DNA of 64,000 nucleotides from Alphaproteobacteria bacterium (GTDB taxonomy: Bacteria; Pseudomonadota; Alphaproteobacteria; CAAGCB01; CAG-977). A model generated the notes under the pieces. That model ran no database searches. It saw only the letters and a list, made by a program, of their open reading frames with translations, and had not been told where the DNA came from. Shown piece by piece: positions 3,608 to 51,205 of the stretch. Within the stretch, counting starts at the first letter, position 1. Every line of letters starts with the position of its first letter. The stretch is taken from contig JAZNBT010000020.1 in assembly GCA_045587165.1 (NCBI GenBank), positions 20,603-84,602 on the forward strand, read 5' to 3'. Made by a program: the position numbers and the translations under genes.

Positions 3608-4051
3608 TCATTTTCCTTTCTTTAAGCAGGAAAAAAAACTATCAAGCCAATGAGCCTCATCAATTATTTGCGGTTTCATGGGGCTAAATCGGTATTCGGG
3701 AGCGTTGATGATCGGGAGGCTTTGCATCTCCAGTGTCAATTTTGGCGGAAGTTTTCTTTGTATAAGGTTTTTAACGGTACAGGTTTCTGCTCCGTTCAAA
3801 AAAGAGAAAAGCAATTTAAAGTAAGCAACGGTTTGTTTTTTCTCAAAAGGAAGGTTATTAAAAATCGTTAATGCGTTATCAAATAAAATTTCATCGGCAT
3901 TGCAGATTAATTCTTCCGCCGTTTCCGTTTGTACGTTCGCTACTTGTAAAAAAAATGAAACGTCATCGTCCGTTAATGACTCCGGATACCCGAGCATTTG
4001 CAAATAAGCACGTGTTACGTCACGTAGACTTTGGATTTTTATGGCAGCCAT
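3608..4051 (-). CDS. Hypothetical soluble protein translationally coupled between opgG and opgH
   Basis: 147 aa ORF. Its start overlaps the opgG stop by 13 nt and its TGA is 1 nt from the opgH ATG. No TM segment and no recognisable motif. Confidence 0.45.
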   Translation of the reverse strand: MAAIKIQSLRDVTRAYLQMLGYPESLTDDDVSFFLQVANVQTETAEELICNADEILFDNALTIFNNLPFEKKQTVAYFKLLFSFLNGAETCTVKNLIQRKLPPKLTLEMQSLPIINAPEYRFSPMKPQIIDEAHWLDSFFSCLKKGK

Positions 4052-5625
4052 TGGTAGCTCCAGATTTCGGAAATATGACGGCCCTTTTTGACAACAGAGG
4101 CTCTTAATTCCGAAATTTTGCCGTTGGGTTTGAAGTCAATGTATGCTGTCAGACCGCCTGTTGCCGGATTATATACAAGCTGTTTTTGAAAAATATTGCC
4201 TTCGCTGGCGGAAGTCTCTAAAATGGCGATTCCTTTTTCAACCTCGTCTTGCATATTCAGAATGTCAAAATCAATAACGAATTTACGTATGTCCGTTTTT
4301 TGTCCGCCCGAAATGCCGCCGATACCTGTTCTGGTCGCGGTGATAGACCCTTGTTTTTTTTCTACGGGCAATTCGGAAAACCAATACAAATTATATGTAT
4401 AACTTAATTCTTGGCCTGCAGTAATTTTTTTATCAGGAATCCAATAAGCGACAATATTGTCGTGAATTTCCTTGTCCGAAGGGATTTCAACAAGTTCTAC
4501 GACACCTTTACCCCATTCGCCGACAGGTTCAACCCAGACGCTCGGACGTTGTTCGTAACGGGCTTCAAAATCCAAATAGTTGGAGATTTCCCGATCCCTT
4601 TGCAACAGTCCGAATCCTTTGGGATTTTTATCCGCAAAATCACTGATACGCAAATGACGCGCATTGTCTAAAGGACGCCACAGCCATTCATCGTTTGCAT
4701 TTAAAATCAGTAGACCGTCGCTATCATGGACTTCGGGGCGGAAATCATCAATTTTATTTTTTGTGTTTTCACCAAATAAGTACATAGATGTTAACGGGGC
4801 TATTCCGAGTTTGCTGATTTCTTTTCTGGCAAACAAACGAACTTCAACCTGTATGACTGTTTCCGTACCCGGTGTAACAATGAATTTATAAGCCCCTGTT
4901 ATGCTAGGGCTGTCTAATAAGGCATAAATGACAGCGAAATTATTATGCCATCTGGGGCGTTGAAGCCAAAATTCCTTGAAAACAGGAAATTCTTCTCCTG
5001 TTTGAATGGCCGTATTTATGGCCAATCCTCGAGCGGATATGCCGTATTTATGTCCTTTGCCGAGAGCGCGAAAATAGCTAGCTCCGAGGAAAGAAACCAA
5101 TTCGTCGAAATAATCATTCGTATTTAAAGGATAGTGCAATCTAAAGCCGGCGTAACCGATGTTTGTCAAATGTTCCGAATTAAATCGGTTGTGGCCGAAA
5201 TTAAAAAAATCAGGCGAATAGGCTAGCGGATAAAATTTATCATGAAAGTTATCATTAATAATTTCATTAATTTTAACGGAATTTTGAAATAAGCCGCCAA
5301 TGTGAAAAAATTGGACTTCAAAAGGTTTGTTTGTTCCGAACCAAGGGCCTTTTTCCCGTTTAAATCGTATTGAGCGATATTTATCGTAATCTATATTTTG
5401 CAACTCTGGCGGCAGTTTTTGTTCTGAAGGTGCAAAAGGAAGTTCGGATAAGGTCCTGGCTTTGGAAATTACTTTTTCAAAACAGAATGAATTTTCAGAT
5501 TGATCTATAGCGGTTAGAGATCTTTCTATTTTATAGTTTTTGTAAAAATCGGGTCCCTTTACGACGATATACAAGATCAATACCGTCAAAAAAACATTCG
5601 CTATGTATCTTATCCGTTTTTTCAT
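4039..5625 (-). CDS. opgG: Periplasmic glucan biosynthesis protein, MdoG/OpgG (OpgD) family
   Basis: 528 aa with an N-terminal signal/anchor (MKKRIRYIANVFLTVLILYIVV). Family-typical size and position immediately upstream of opgH. Confidence 0.8.
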   Translation of the reverse strand: MKKRIRYIANVFLTVLILYIVVKGPDFYKNYKIERSLTAIDQSENSFCFEKVISKARTLSELPFAPSEQKLPPELQNIDYDKYRSIRFKREKGPWFGTNKPFEVQFFHIGGLFQNSVKINEIINDNFHDKFYPLAYSPDFFNFGHNRFNSEHLTNIGYAGFRLHYPLNTNDYFDELVSFLGASYFRALGKGHKYGISARGLAINTAIQTGEEFPVFKEFWLQRPRWHNNFAVIYALLDSPSITGAYKFIVTPGTETVIQVEVRLFARKEISKLGIAPLTSMYLFGENTKNKIDDFRPEVHDSDGLLILNANDEWLWRPLDNARHLRISDFADKNPKGFGLLQRDREISNYLDFEARYEQRPSVWVEPVGEWGKGVVELVEIPSDKEIHDNIVAYWIPDKKITAGQELSYTYNLYWFSELPVEKKQGSITATRTGIGGISGGQKTDIRKFVIDFDILNMQDEVEKGIAILETSASEGNIFQKQLVYNPATGGLTAYIDFKPNGKISELRASVVKKGRHISEIWSYQWLP

Positions 5626-5867: not shown

Positions 5868-8525
5868 TTATTTCTTTTCTTTTAGTTTTTGACGAATTGT
5901 CAAAACGGCTTTGAAAAGCTCCGATGCAACAATAACGGTTGCGGAAAGTCCGATAATTTTCAACCACATTTCCGCGGGCAGAGGAACCGTTCCGAAAATA
6001 TAACCGCCGTACTGGCTGATGACATACTGCAACAGGAATGTCGCGACAAAAGCGATCAGCATCAGTTTGTTGTCAAAGAAATGCTTTAATATGCTGGCAT
6101 GAGTCAATTCTCTGCAGGCAAAAGCGTTCATCAGCTGGAACATGACAAACAGCGTAAACAATATTGTGCGTTGTTGACCTTCCGTGCCGCCCAAAATGTT
6201 TTGAGTGGTTTGCAACATGAAAACAGCGGAAATGAACAAGCCGTTGAAAATGATTCTGGCCAACATTTCTTTGGTGACGATACTTGCGTCACGCGGTGTC
6301 GGTTTGTTGTCCATCAATGTACTGCGGATCGGTTCCAGACTGAGTGTTAAAGCGGGAGGACCGTCCATGATCAGGTTCACCCACAACAGCTGTAACGCAG
6401 TAAACGGCGTCGGGAAACCGGCCAAGAGAGAGACTAAAACAACAATAACGGAAGATAGATTGACCGTCAGCTGGAATAAAATGAAACGTTGGAAGTTTTC
6501 ATAAATTCCGCGTCCCCATTGAATGGCTTTGACAATCGTTGAGAATGAATCGTCCAGTAAAACGACATCGCTGGCTTCTTTGGAAACTTCCGTTCCGGAA
6601 ATGCCCATCGCCAGTCCGATGTCGGCGTTTTTAATCGCAGGCGCATCGTTAATCCCGTCGCCGGTAACGGCGACAACGCACTTCATCGCTTTTAACGCTT
6701 TGACGACGCGCATTTTAATGACGGGCGTGCTACGGGCGATAACGCGGATCTTGGGAAGAAGATCGGACAATTCTTTTTCGTCAAGGGCGTCAATGTCTTT
6801 GGCTTCCAGAGCGATATGATTGTCATCCAGCAAAGACAAATCATTGGCGATCGCTTTGGCGGTAATGATATTGTCTCCGGTCAGCATCTTGATATCGATG
6901 CCTGCTTTGCGGCAATTGCGTACGGCATCATAAACTTCTTTACGCAACGGATCGGCAATCGCGGTAAAACCGTCAAATGTCAGACCGCTTTCAACGGTTT
7001 TGCGCTGTGTTTCGAAATCGGGGCATGTGTCCATATTTTTATGGGCAAAGCCGATGACGCGGCAAGCTTTTTCCTGAAAAGCGATGATCTGTTCTTCGTA
7101 TTTTTTCCGTTCCTCGGGATCTAAAGAACACATGGACAGAATTTTTTCAGGACTTCCTTTCGTATAAACGGTGTAACCGTTTTCACTGCGGACGACTGTC
7201 GTCATATTCTTCGTTTCCGAAGAAAACGGATAGACATGTGCGATTCCGAACGACTTGCGGGTCTGTTGATAATCTTTTCCGGCTTTGTCCACGGCAACCA
7301 AAAGAGCACATTCCGTCGGATTGCCGATAAACGTATAGGCATTGTTTTCAATGCCGATATCCGCCGTGGAATTTAAACAGAAGTTTTCCAGTAAAGCCGT
7401 ATCCGTTACTTCGTTAGGTTGTTTTAAAACGCCGTGTTCGCAAACCTGTTGGACGGTCATCCTGTTTTCGGTCAATGTTCCCGTTTTATCCGAACAAATG
7501 ACGTTAATGCAGCCGATCGTTTCGCAGGCGATCATTTTTTTGACCAAAGCGTTTTCCTTGGACATTTTAATAATATTGATTGCCAGACAGATCGCGACGG
7601 TTGTCGGCAATCCTTCGGGGACGGCGGCGACAATCAGAACAATACTGGTGATGAAAGCTTCCGAAATATTATGCAGGTTTGCCGTTCCGTTCGAAATGAA
7701 CAAGCCCAGTTGGATCAAAAAGGCTAATGAGGCCATGGATATGCCCCAAATGGCAATAATGCTTCCTAAATGAGCCAGCTTTTCCTGCAGCGGCGTCATG
7801 CTTTTTTCCGTAGAGGACAATTCTTTGGCAATTTGGCCGAATTCCGTTTCGTTGCCGACCGCCGTCACGATCATCGTTCCGGATCCGGCCGTGACAAACG
7901 TTCCGGAATAAAGCATGTTGGTTCTGTCCGCCAAGGGTGTCTTCAGGTCGGGAAAAACGGCTTCGGCGTCTTTTTTAACGGCTTCGCTTTCGCCTGTTAA
8001 GGAAGCTTCTTCCACACGCAGATCGGTACTTTCCAACAAACGACCGTCTGCGGGTATCTTGGCCCCCGTTTCCAGACAGACGATATCGCCGACGACAATG
8101 TCTTTTTGATTGATCAGGCGAACTTTTCCGTTTCTGAGAACTTTGGCGGAAATGTCGTCTTTCATTTTATTGAGGGCTTCAAACGCTTTGGCGCTTTTCC
8201 CTTCCATAATCAGAGAAATGGCGACGGAAAGAGAAATAGCGACAAGAATTCCCACACATTCTATGTATTCCGTTTCATCGCCGTTTAAACCGCGGGCATA
8301 ATTAACGCCGAATGCGATAATCGCGGCGATGACCAACATCAGAACCATCGGTTCGGTTAAATTGTTCCAAATCTTTTTCATCAAAGATTCTTGCGGCGGA
8401 CGGGATAATTGGTTCGTACCGAAACGAACGGCGTTGTCAACCGCCTGTTCTTCGGACAGTCCTTTTTGTTCCGAAACGCCCAGCTCATCGAGTACTTGCT
8501 GTTTGGTCTTTGTAAAAGCGTCCAT
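5868..8525 (-). CDS. P-type cation-transporting ATPase, type II (Ca2+/Mn2+-type, PMR1/SERCA-like)
   Basis: 885 aa with DKTGTLT phosphorylation motif, TGDN, GDGINDAPA hinge and a PEGLP TM4 motif. PEGLP indicates Ca/Mn-type rather than heavy-metal CPC or MgtA PEMLP. Confidence 0.88.
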   Translation of the reverse strand: MDAFTKTKQQVLDELGVSEQKGLSEEQAVDNAVRFGTNQLSRPPQESLMKKIWNNLTEPMVLMLVIAAIIAFGVNYARGLNGDETEYIECVGILVAISLSVAISLIMEGKSAKAFEALNKMKDDISAKVLRNGKVRLINQKDIVVGDIVCLETGAKIPADGRLLESTDLRVEEASLTGESEAVKKDAEAVFPDLKTPLADRTNMLYSGTFVTAGSGTMIVTAVGNETEFGQIAKELSSTEKSMTPLQEKLAHLGSIIAIWGISMASLAFLIQLGLFISNGTANLHNISEAFITSIVLIVAAVPEGLPTTVAICLAINIIKMSKENALVKKMIACETIGCINVICSDKTGTLTENRMTVQQVCEHGVLKQPNEVTDTALLENFCLNSTADIGIENNAYTFIGNPTECALLVAVDKAGKDYQQTRKSFGIAHVYPFSSETKNMTTVVRSENGYTVYTKGSPEKILSMCSLDPEERKKYEEQIIAFQEKACRVIGFAHKNMDTCPDFETQRKTVESGLTFDGFTAIADPLRKEVYDAVRNCRKAGIDIKMLTGDNIITAKAIANDLSLLDDNHIALEAKDIDALDEKELSDLLPKIRVIARSTPVIKMRVVKALKAMKCVVAVTGDGINDAPAIKNADIGLAMGISGTEVSKEASDVVLLDDSFSTIVKAIQWGRGIYENFQRFILFQLTVNLSSVIVVLVSLLAGFPTPFTALQLLWVNLIMDGPPALTLSLEPIRSTLMDNKPTPRDASIVTKEMLARIIFNGLFISAVFMLQTTQNILGGTEGQQRTILFTLFVMFQLMNAFACRELTHASILKHFFDNKLMLIAFVATFLLQYVISQYGGYIFGTVPLPAEMWLKIIGLSATVIVASELFKAVLTIRQKLKEKK

Positions 8526-8544
8526 AAAGTTACCTCTTTAACAT

Positions 8545-8680
8545 TTAAAAAAGACTCGTGTACGAACTGAAAAAAGTTCAGCCTGTACATGAGTCTTGTT
8601 CTTTAAGACAAGCCAGACCGACATTGCAGTCACGATGTTGACTTGCCACACACGAAACCGTGTGCAAACTACTCCCTCAT
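8545..8680 (-). ncRNA. Putative yybP-ykoY-type (Mn2+) riboswitch with terminator/attenuator hairpin in the ATPase leader
   Basis: Minus-strand leader contains GAGGGAGUAG and CAAGUCAACAU, which resemble the hallmark conserved blocks of the yybP-ykoY motif. It also has several stem-loops (cacacg/cgtgtg, cttgt/acaag). The last is a long hairpin (gactcatgtacag...tacacgagtc) followed by UUUUUU immediately before the RBS AAAGAGG and the ATG at 8525. A candidate TTGACT-18-TATTAT promoter lies at about 8686-8720. Confidence 0.5.
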
Positions 8681-8778
8681 AGGGCGTATAAATAATAAGG
8701 TAAGAAAACAAGGCAAGTCAAATAAAAAGAATATAAAGGATTTTTAGGAATTTTTTGGAAATTTTGTCTAAAATTTAA

Positions 8779-37624: not shown

Positions 37625-37725
37625 AAGATTTAAGCGGAAACCGGACAGCGACCCGTTTTAAAACCGTTACGGCTGCTTTCTTCCGAATCTGACCGGGTTG
37701 GCGGCCAAAACGTCCGCGGCCGATT
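37625..37725 (-). ncRNA. ffs: Signal recognition particle RNA (4.5S, ffs)
   Basis: The minus strand reads ...CCGGUCAGAUUCGGAAGAAAGCAGCCGUAACGG..., matching the conserved SRP domain IV (E. coli ...CAGGUCAGGUCCGGAAGGAAGCAGCCAAGGCAG...). Flanking complementary arms are present, and the position upstream of dnaX is conserved. Ends are approximate. Confidence 0.65.
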
Positions 37726-37898
37726 TCCTTTTCCTATTTAGGGATATTTTTGTTTTAAGTGCAAGCAGAACTTTTTTTATTTTTCAAACAGACGGTCAAA
37801 CCCCTTATTTAGAGCCGTTTTTCGATCAAAGCTTGACAAAGGGAGGTTTTCCGTTTTTTCTGTACCTTGCTTTTGTTTGTTCCAAGGAGTGTTCTTTT

Positions 37899-51129: not shown

Positions 51130-51205
<76 letters not shown>

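Follow-up and report, generated by a model that had tools for sequence, protein, structure and literature searches.

The window analysed here, a 64,000-nt stretch of DNA from an uncultured gut alphaproteobacterium, carries on its minus strand (5868-8525) a gene for an 885-residue P2-type (PMCA/SPCA/LMCA1-like) Ca2+/Mn2+ P-type ATPase, assigned on the basis of TIGR01517 and Pfam. The protein scores 689.8 bits against TIGR01517 (PMCA-type Ca ATPase), whose cutoff is 507, contains the Pfam domains E1-E2_ATPase and Cation_ATPase_N/C, and includes the PEGLP motif in the form AAVPEGLPTTV, which bears out the description of this gene as a PEGLP-type Ca/Mn ATPase in the first-pass annotation. Among proteins of solved structure, it is most similar to Listeria LMCA1 (475 bits) and, with an almost equal score, to the human Ca2+/Mn2+ pump SPCA1 (456 bits). 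An exact-sequence lookup of the ATPase returned no record. The ATPase region has a G+C content of 0.47 and the window one of about 0.44, a difference that is uninformative on horizontal transfer. The upstream neighbour (8843-11353, plus strand) is divergent.

The leader of the ATPase gene occupies positions 8686-8547 of the minus strand and reads ...UAUGAGGGAGUAGUUUGCACACGGUUUCGUGUGUGGCAAGUCAACAUCGUGACUGCAAUGUCGGUCUGGCUUGUCUUAAAGAACAAGACUCAUGUACAGGCUGAACUUUUUUCAGUUCGUACACGAGUCUUUUUUAAAUGUUAAAGAGGUAACUUUAUG. It is preceded by a promoter-like site (8692-8721, minus strand) with a -35 element TTGACT at 8721-8716, an 18-nt spacer and a -10 element TATTAT at 8697-8692. By consensus scan this sigma-70-like promoter agrees with 10 of the 12 consensus positions, and the region is conserved in two close relatives (L001 and L004). 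Transcription likely starts near 8687-8685, a few bases upstream of the aptamer described below. At the other end of the leader, the putative ribosome-binding site GAGG (8533-8536, minus strand, within AAAGAGG) lies 7 nt before the ATG at 8525. Overall, the leader folds with a z-score of -4.39, and none of 200 shuffled sequences folded as well.

Three stem-loops can be recognized on the minus strand: P2 (8665-8648), P3 (8647-8607) and a predicted intrinsic terminator (8601-8547). The terminator consists of a 5' arm at 8601-8577 and a 3' arm at 8571-8547, with 22 predicted pairs and a folding energy of -23.2 kcal/mol, and its U6 tract (8552-8547) ends 8 nt upstream of the ribosome-binding site. 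The first-pass annotation had described three stem-loops, the last being a long GC hairpin followed by U6 before the ribosome-binding site; the count, the length and the U tract hold, but the hairpin is not GC-rich, with a G+C content of about 35-40%. The two blocks that it had regarded as hallmarks of the yybP-ykoY aptamer can be read directly from the sequence, GAGGGAGUAG at 8678-8669 and CAAGUCAACAU at 8645-8635, both on the minus strand. A three-codon open reading frame (AUG-AGG-GAG-UAG) was also considered as a possible leader peptide and was rejected, since relatives have GUG, UUG or no start codon at this place and the bases concerned belong to P1 and L1.

The aptamer domain, of the P4-less three-way-junction yybP-ykoY type, was delimited by a covariance model and by covariation to 8581-8686 (minus strand). 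Its elements follow the order P1.1, L1, P1.2 and a three-way junction with P2 and a P3.1-L3-P3.2 arm, with UUAAA at the place of P4. L1 is formed by GGAGUA opposite N-AGA, and L3 by GUCA-ACAUNN opposite CUGG. The 5' strand of P1.1 (UAUGAG, 8676-8681) pairs with 8593-8588, as found by RNAalifold on a MAFFT alignment, and the 3' strand (CUCAUG, 8588-8593) is the switching sequence, common to the aptamer and to the 5' arm of the terminator. The 5' strand of P1.2 (GUUU, 8666-8669) pairs with GAAC at 8601-8598, a helix that appears once P1 is enforced in folding. Between the two segments of P1 lies L1, with its 5' side GGAGUA at 8670-8675, which matches UGGGGAGUAG of the RF00080 consensus. Its 3' side (8594-8597) comprises a variable base, here A, followed by AGA at 8596-8594, so that the strand reads A-AGA-C at 8597-8593.

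The minimum free energy fold contains the P2 hairpin (GCACACG-GUUU-CGUGUGU, 8648-8665). In the P3 arm (8607-8647), P3.1 is built from GGCAAGUCA at 8647-8639 and UGGCUUGUC at 8615-8607, and L3 together with the P3.2 hairpin extends over about 8632-8616. The 5' side of L3 is ACAUCG (8633-8638), where the family consensus is ACAUAC. The sequence GUCAACA does not vary and corresponds exactly to the GUCAACAUACU block that the RF00080 consensus shares with E. coli mntP; GUCAACAU at 8642-8635 is likewise invariant and recurs unchanged in both. In solved structures of Mn2+ riboswitches, the adenine of the L3 C-A pair of residues contacts Mn2+ through its N7. Based on the residues reported in PMC6649816, C8637-A8636 would be the equivalents of L. 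lactis C40-A41 and S. pneumoniae C49-A50, and G8675-G8674-A8673 would correspond by position to the L. lactis metal-site residues G8-G9-A10. The junction strand UUAAA (8602-8606) stands alone between P3 and P1.2, where canonical members have P4.

To place this element in a family, 80 species-level genomes with relatives of the ATPase were fetched. The closest relatives of the protein (81-93% identity) come from uncultured gut Alphaproteobacteria, and the next tier (58-65%) mostly from Clostridia, together with Lentisphaerae/Victivallales, Synergistaceae, Spirochaetia and others. The aptamer core is found at 70-88% nucleotide identity upstream of most ATPase orthologs, including those of Clostridia, Lentisphaerae/Victivallales, Synergistaceae and other groups, and nucleotide conservation across phyla is restricted to the aptamer. 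In a MAFFT alignment of 37 sequences the unpaired blocks are invariant, while the stems are variable and compensating; RNAalifold on a MAFFT alignment, independent of the model-based alignment described below, yields the same helices (P1, P2, P3.1 and P3.2).

From the 37-sequence family alignment, which holds no canonical sequences, we built a covariance model (R1) that replaced a simple delimitation of copies by regular expression, which had missed variants. R1 matches the 64-kb window once, at 8581-8686 (minus strand; 93.7 bits, E = 2.6e-23); since the seed of 37 includes the sequence from the window, this score is partly by construction, and its informative part is that there is no second site. 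With the same model, 63 copies score at least 74 bits, and 62 of them lie directly upstream of an ATPase gene, namely the one in the window and those of 61 of the 80 ATPase loci. A divergent subgroup comprises further copies at 26-39 bits. Within the alphaproteobacterial lineage, some close relatives have the element and others only a short unstructured leader. A search for canonical RF00080 elements in front of the 17 ATPase orthologs without the motif was negative; in those from Alphaproteobacteria, a short leader and a promoter-like site take the place of the element.

The conserved blocks are strictly maintained among the ATPase-associated copies. GGAGUA shows no variation across the 37 aligned sequences or the 66 copies that were parsed. 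All 66 also have AGA, with a preceding G (52 copies), A (10) or C (4). The junction reads CUUAAA in 54 of these copies, and the remaining forms fit U-N-A/G-A-A/U. In the R1-based alignment, pairing is maintained in 96.9% of the pair cells, and both partners have changed at 22 of 27 pairs; none of 500 shuffles reached the observed covariation values, and pairing in slid registers amounted to 25-46%. Each of the five helices (P1.1, P1.2, P2, P3.1 and P3.2) is paired in 93-98% of cases. P1.1 is 97.4% paired, with both sides changed at five of its six pairs. P1.2 (GUUD/UAAC), whose pairs were absent from the model that made the alignment, is 93.3% paired, and three of its four pairs show compensatory changes. 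Covariation in P2 is strong, with exchanges of GC for AU and of CG for UA and two pairs that have 27 double changes each, while P3.1 is 98.1% paired and P3.2, where all three pairs covary, 97.6%.

Despite this conservation, the Rfam model of the class does not detect the element. RF00080 (Rfam 15) gave no match in the window at its gathering score of 45 bits, and permissive searches (E<=10) of 421 nt and of 131 nt of the leader were also negative for this model, the sole matches of the permissive Rfam search being chance-level microRNA models on the terminator hairpin. The first-pass annotation had proposed that the absence of a significant RF00080 hit would speak against a yybP-ykoY riboswitch, and that is the outcome obtained, but a control with an accepted member shows that this reasoning is invalid here. 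In a permissive search, the E. coli mntP riboswitch scores 41.6 bits against RF00080 (E = 5.6e-10), below the gathering score. At the gathering score, RF00080 recovers none of 36 copies of the P4-less subtype, and permissively it recovers two of about 22 (L027, 19.2 bits, E = 0.0014; L139, 27.3 bits, E = 8.8e-4). In its printed form, RF00080 contains no P1 pairs, and it demands a P4 helix. The window sequence scores below these sister copies, and its known differences are the lack of P4 and the sequence GAGGGAG instead of GGGGGAG. The element thus lies outside RF00080 as Rfam 15 delimits it, with a cutoff that also excludes the accepted member mntP. Because this threshold leaves out even E. 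coli mntP and most related copies, the negative result for the window is uninformative; it reflects a limitation of the model and is no evidence against the class assignment.

Comparison with E. coli mntP links the family to the class in a more direct manner. R1 matches the mntP riboswitch (L081:5461-5555) at 24.1 bits with E = 0.0024 over 1.4 Mb, and in a second search with E = 1.6e-4, values that are rough owing to a shortened calibration of R1; RF00080 matches the same site (5462-5558). The printed RF00080 consensus reads UGGGGAGUAGCc (UGGGGAGUAG) ... GCGUCAACAUACU ... UGGCGC, with L1 and L3 in the same order as in the window and in E. coli mntP. In the window, a GGGGAGUAG-type 5' strand stands opposite (N)AGAC between P1.1 and P1.2, in register with the RF00080 consensus and with mntP. 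L3 is a conserved loop with C-A, whose role as a metal ligand would follow from the residues described in PMC6649816. Covarying helices, similarity to an accepted member and a location in the 5' leader of a metal-exporter gene are all found. At the position of the P4 helix of a four-way junction, the window has UUAAA only. P4 is typical of the class and not defining, since the literature accepts three-way-junction members, namely mgtA, which lacks P4, and alx, which lacks P2. These results uphold the earlier proposal of a yybP-ykoY-type aptamer, which now draws on a family covariance model, covariation, reciprocal matching with E. coli mntP and an architecture of the mgtA type.

Canonical members of the yybP-ykoY class with a four-way junction include L. 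lactis yoaB, the element of X. oryzae and E. coli mntP. The window shares with them the L1 block GGGAGUAG, the L3 block GUCAACAU(A/C)C opposite CUGGC, a GAGAC-type 3' side of L1 and the order P1-L1-P2-P3/L3. The associated genes are also of the same kinds, MntP and P-type ATPases, and covariance-model matches with E. coli mntP are mutual. Unlike the canonical members, the window element has no P4 and no RF00080 match, and unlike E. coli mntP, which acts on translation, its expression platform is a predicted terminator.

The closest described counterpart is the mgtA riboswitch of S. pneumoniae, a member of the yybP-ykoY family with a three-way junction in which P4 is "replaced by an invariant UNAAA" (Martin et al. 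2019, PMC6649816). Both elements have a three-way junction of P1 (with L1), P2 and P3 (with L3), UNAAA in place of P4 (UUAAA in the window), a conserved 5' side of L1, an AGA on its 3' side after a variable base, and an invariant C-A in L3. Both are followed directly by a terminator with a U-rich tail, target a PII-type Ca2+/Mn2+ ATPase and follow an ON logic, which in the window is predicted. With UNAAA for P4, then P1.2 and the 3' AGA of L1, and a predicted U-tract terminator after these, the element fits the P4-less subtype, a match based on the verbal description in PMC6649816. Two differences were noted: the host of the window is an uncultured gut alphaproteobacterium and not a Firmicute, and the base before AGA is A, in contrast to the G of Streptococcus and most relatives. 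Clostridia hold most copies of the P4-less subtype. In C. difficile, similarly, a Mn2+ riboswitch lies upstream of CD2503, which encodes a cation-translocating P-type ATPase (PMC11477304).

The E. coli alx riboswitch, another three-way-junction member with the conserved L1/L3 metal core (PMC13594968), raises the question of whether the window element might be gated by a second input such as alkaline pH, with Mn2+ alone not being the operative signal, given that alx couples pH to Mn2+ sensitivity (PMC13594968). The two junctions, however, are built differently. In alx, an L2 capping loop takes the place of P2 and P4 is retained, and the riboswitch is tuned by pH and controls translation. The window element has a P2 that is present and covarying, and P4 is the helix that is missing. 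Moreover, the pH effect maps to that L2 capping loop and to an alx-specific L3 (PMC13594968), whereas L3 in the window is of the common consensus ACAUNN. We regard gating by a second input as very improbable.

To examine the regulon of the subtype beyond ATPase loci, metagenome contigs were scanned with a DNA pattern specific to the P4-less subtype, with copies selected irrespective of the downstream gene, and at least 120 matches were obtained. The pattern fixes the core blocks, so that block invariance within this metagenome set is by construction. Among the matches listed, the first downstream gene encodes an MntP-like protein (Pfam Mntp) in 72 cases, an ATPase of the type found in the window in 17 and other proteins in 23, and in 8 the contig ends before a gene. 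MntP, a dedicated Mn2+ exporter, thus accounts for 72 of 112 assignable copies among the matches listed. The other genes, among the same matches, include those for cation-diffusion-facilitator (CDF) efflux proteins and the Na_Ca_ex family, one CitMHS and one ABC protein. One Clostridium genome (L027) holds two copies, one upstream of mntP and one upstream of the ATPase gene. ATPase- and MntP-associated copies do not differ in their L1, L3, AGA and UUAAA blocks, part of this identity being forced by the pattern, and no ATPase-specific signature that would hint at another ligand was found in L1 or L3.

This set of downstream genes is the known Mn2+-exporter regulon. Considering this MntP/ATPase regulon and the identical L1/L3 cores, Mn2+ is most likely the ligand of the window element. 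A different reading of the metal specificity in the alphaproteobacterial host is that the same fold serves before Ca-ATPases as a physiological sensor of Ca2+, or of both Ca2+ and Mn2+, that switches on a Ca2+ efflux pump. The regulated gene is indeed of the PMCA/LMCA1 type of Ca2+ pumps, and the subtype also precedes genes of the Na_Ca_ex family. In addition, the S. pneumoniae mgtA aptamer binds Ca2+ in vitro with an affinity about 50-fold above that for Mn2+, and some read-through with Ca2+ was observed (PMC6649816). In vivo, however, the mgtA riboswitch is a Mn2+-specific ON switch, and reporters in S. pneumoniae and B. subtilis responded specifically to Mn2+ and remained silent with Ca2+ up to 10 mM (PMC6649816). 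The composition of the regulon, dominated by MntP among the matches listed, also argues against a Ca2+ sensor, as does the sharing of one L1/L3 core, including the adenine whose N7 selects Mn2+, by ATPase- and MntP-associated copies. Furthermore, SPCA1, among the nearest solved relatives of the pump, also transports Mn2+. For these reasons we consider a Ca2+ or dual sensor at this locus unlikely. For the subtype in general, it is quite improbable that copies before Ca2+-ATPase and Na/Ca-exchanger genes act as Ca2+-responsive or dual Ca2+/Mn2+ switches in vivo; if they did, this would be the first physiological Ca2+ riboswitch. In any case, the question of Ca2+ versus Mn2+ that was posed by mgtA extends to a large and diverse set of pumps.

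With Mn2+ as the favoured ligand, the arrangement of the leader suggests how the switch would operate. The 5' arm of the terminator (8601-8577) includes the 3' strand of P1.2, the 3' AGA of L1 and the entire 3' strand of P1.1 (8601-8588), and because 8601-8588 is common to both structures, aptamer and terminator are mutually exclusive. When the full leader is folded, the structure of lowest energy is the terminator state (-53.9 kcal/mol), compared with -40.7 kcal/mol when P1 is enforced. As the terminator state is the minimum, the default would be OFF, and read-through would need the docking of L1 and L3 to be stabilized by metal. At high cytoplasmic Mn2+, L1 and L3 would dock around the metal, which would stabilize P1.1 and P1.2 and keep 8597-8588 within the aptamer. 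The terminator (8601-8547) would then be unable to nucleate, and RNA polymerase would read through, so that the pump is made (ON). At low Mn2+, the favoured terminator would form and transcription would end at the U6 tract, 8 nt upstream of the ribosome-binding site. The pump, once made, would export Mn2+ and probably Ca2+ as well. In this scheme we assume that an intrinsic terminator of such design is functional in the alphaproteobacterial host.

The overlap is conserved in the family. By an automatic search, a hairpin with a U-tract that overlaps the aptamer in the way of the window terminator is present in at least 43 of 63 members. In most other members this first hairpin is kept but lacks a U-tract, and a second terminator-like hairpin comes after it, an arrangement that looks like a relay design. 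The terminator-type ON platform put forward in the first-pass annotation is consistent with this, as the predicted terminator overlaps the 3' strand of P1 both in the window and in these relatives.

An attenuator of this kind could in principle operate without sensing a ligand, either constitutively or under the control of a protein or small RNA, or the hairpin could be a leftover terminator of neighbouring transcription. The lack of an RF00080 match would agree with a leader that senses no ligand, and the hairpin is near-palindromic and could terminate in both directions. A leftover terminator is nevertheless at odds with the divergent orientation of the upstream neighbour, which leaves no upstream transcript to be ended. 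More generally, an element without a ligand would not readily account for invariant unpaired blocks that match exactly the metal-binding loops of Mn2+ riboswitches of known structure, for the covariation of the helices and the reciprocal covariance-model match, or for the occurrence of the same RNA upstream of unrelated metal exporters. A leader without ligand sensing is very improbable. Judging from its sequence and that of its relatives, we are confident that the leader is very probably a Mn2+-responsive yybP-ykoY riboswitch of the P4-less three-way-junction subtype represented by S. pneumoniae mgtA, acting as a terminator-based ON switch.

The element is new, but its class is known and its subtype has already been described, and it leaves the understanding of the riboswitch mechanism unchanged. 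For the organism, the placement of the ATPase under a probable Mn2+ ON switch suggests that the pump is likely an exporter of Mn2+ (and Ca2+), which would protect this uncultured gut alphaproteobacterium from Mn toxicity. For the family, our findings indicate that RF00080 is nearly blind to the P4-less subtype, which is nevertheless abundant in metagenomes of gut and anaerobic origin. Since all 36 copies were missed by RF00080 at its gathering score and at least 120 pattern matches were obtained from metagenomes, Mn riboswitches are probably under-annotated in the genomes of gut bacteria and anaerobes, and a model in which P4 is optional, such as R1, would recover the missed copies.

In approximately one-third of the members of the riboswitch family, the first hairpin that overlaps helix P1 is not followed by a U-tract. 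Within the 0-100 nt downstream of the aptamer, these same members (including loci L040, L041, L025, L029, L031, L033, L039 and L042, among others) carry a second hairpin that does possess a U-tract and whose 5' arm looks complementary to the 3' arm of the first hairpin. This arrangement suggests a three-hairpin relay platform rather than direct overlap with the terminator. A further pairing is available in the window, where the invariant guanines of the conserved internal loop L1 at 8674-8677 can base-pair (CCCU/AGGG) with C residues at 8682-8684. These residues immediately precede P1, and the family consensus here is CCC followed by RUGAGGG. The minimum free energy fold of the full leader predicts this hairpin together with the terminator, and it may represent an additional OFF-state element that sequesters L1.

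The leader of E. coli K-12 mntP (L081:5462-5558), a textbook Mn2+ riboswitch, scored 41.6 bits with the Rfam 15 model RF00080, below its gathering score of 45, and is consequently missed by annotation at the gathering threshold. With R1, our family-derived covariance model, scores of 26-39 bits were obtained for a divergent subgroup of copies that precede ATPase orthologs (L048:2844-2939, L073:701-798, L074:1269-1369, L077:2783-2876 and L058:2737-2815). L1 and L3 are intact in these copies, P1 is AAAAG/CUUUU, P2 is nearly missing, and a short junction insert is present (GACCUGAAA...).

Clostridiales-1 RNA (RF01699), an orphan Rfam motif, was identified at L121:2508-2681 (+; 133 bits) and L093:161-260 (-; 49.3 bits). 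At both loci it directly follows the P4-less Mn riboswitch in the same orientation, and in L093 the order is riboswitch, motif and ATPase start. The motif may belong to an extended leader or expression platform, or it may be an sRNA under Mn control.

Within the window, the riboswitch promoter is adjoined by a divergently transcribed ORF of 836 aa (8843-11353, +), for which searches of Pfam and NCBIfam gave no match. Downstream of the ATPase lies a gene for an MdoG periplasmic glucan biosynthesis protein (4039-5625, -; Pfam E = 1e-187), a neighbor that is consistent with a Gram-negative, proteobacterial host. Rfam also identified a bacterial small SRP RNA (37633-37728, -; 57.1 bits) and a tRNA (51133-51205, -; 70.6 bits).

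No riboswitch was found upstream of the ATPase match in the alphaproteobacterial relatives L007-L009, L011, L012, L014-L016, L023 and L026, whose ATPases are 64-83% identical. Most of these loci have either a promoter-like CCTTGAC... site with a short leader or a co-directional gene upstream. Among them, L012 (CAVCSV010000025.1) is labelled Limosilactobacillus gorillae; its ATPase is 76% identical to the alphaproteobacterial one and its upstream region is almost identical to those of L011 and L026. The contig is probably mis-binned. The existence of relatives lacking the element indicates that the riboswitch was gained or lost inside the alphaproteobacterial clade.
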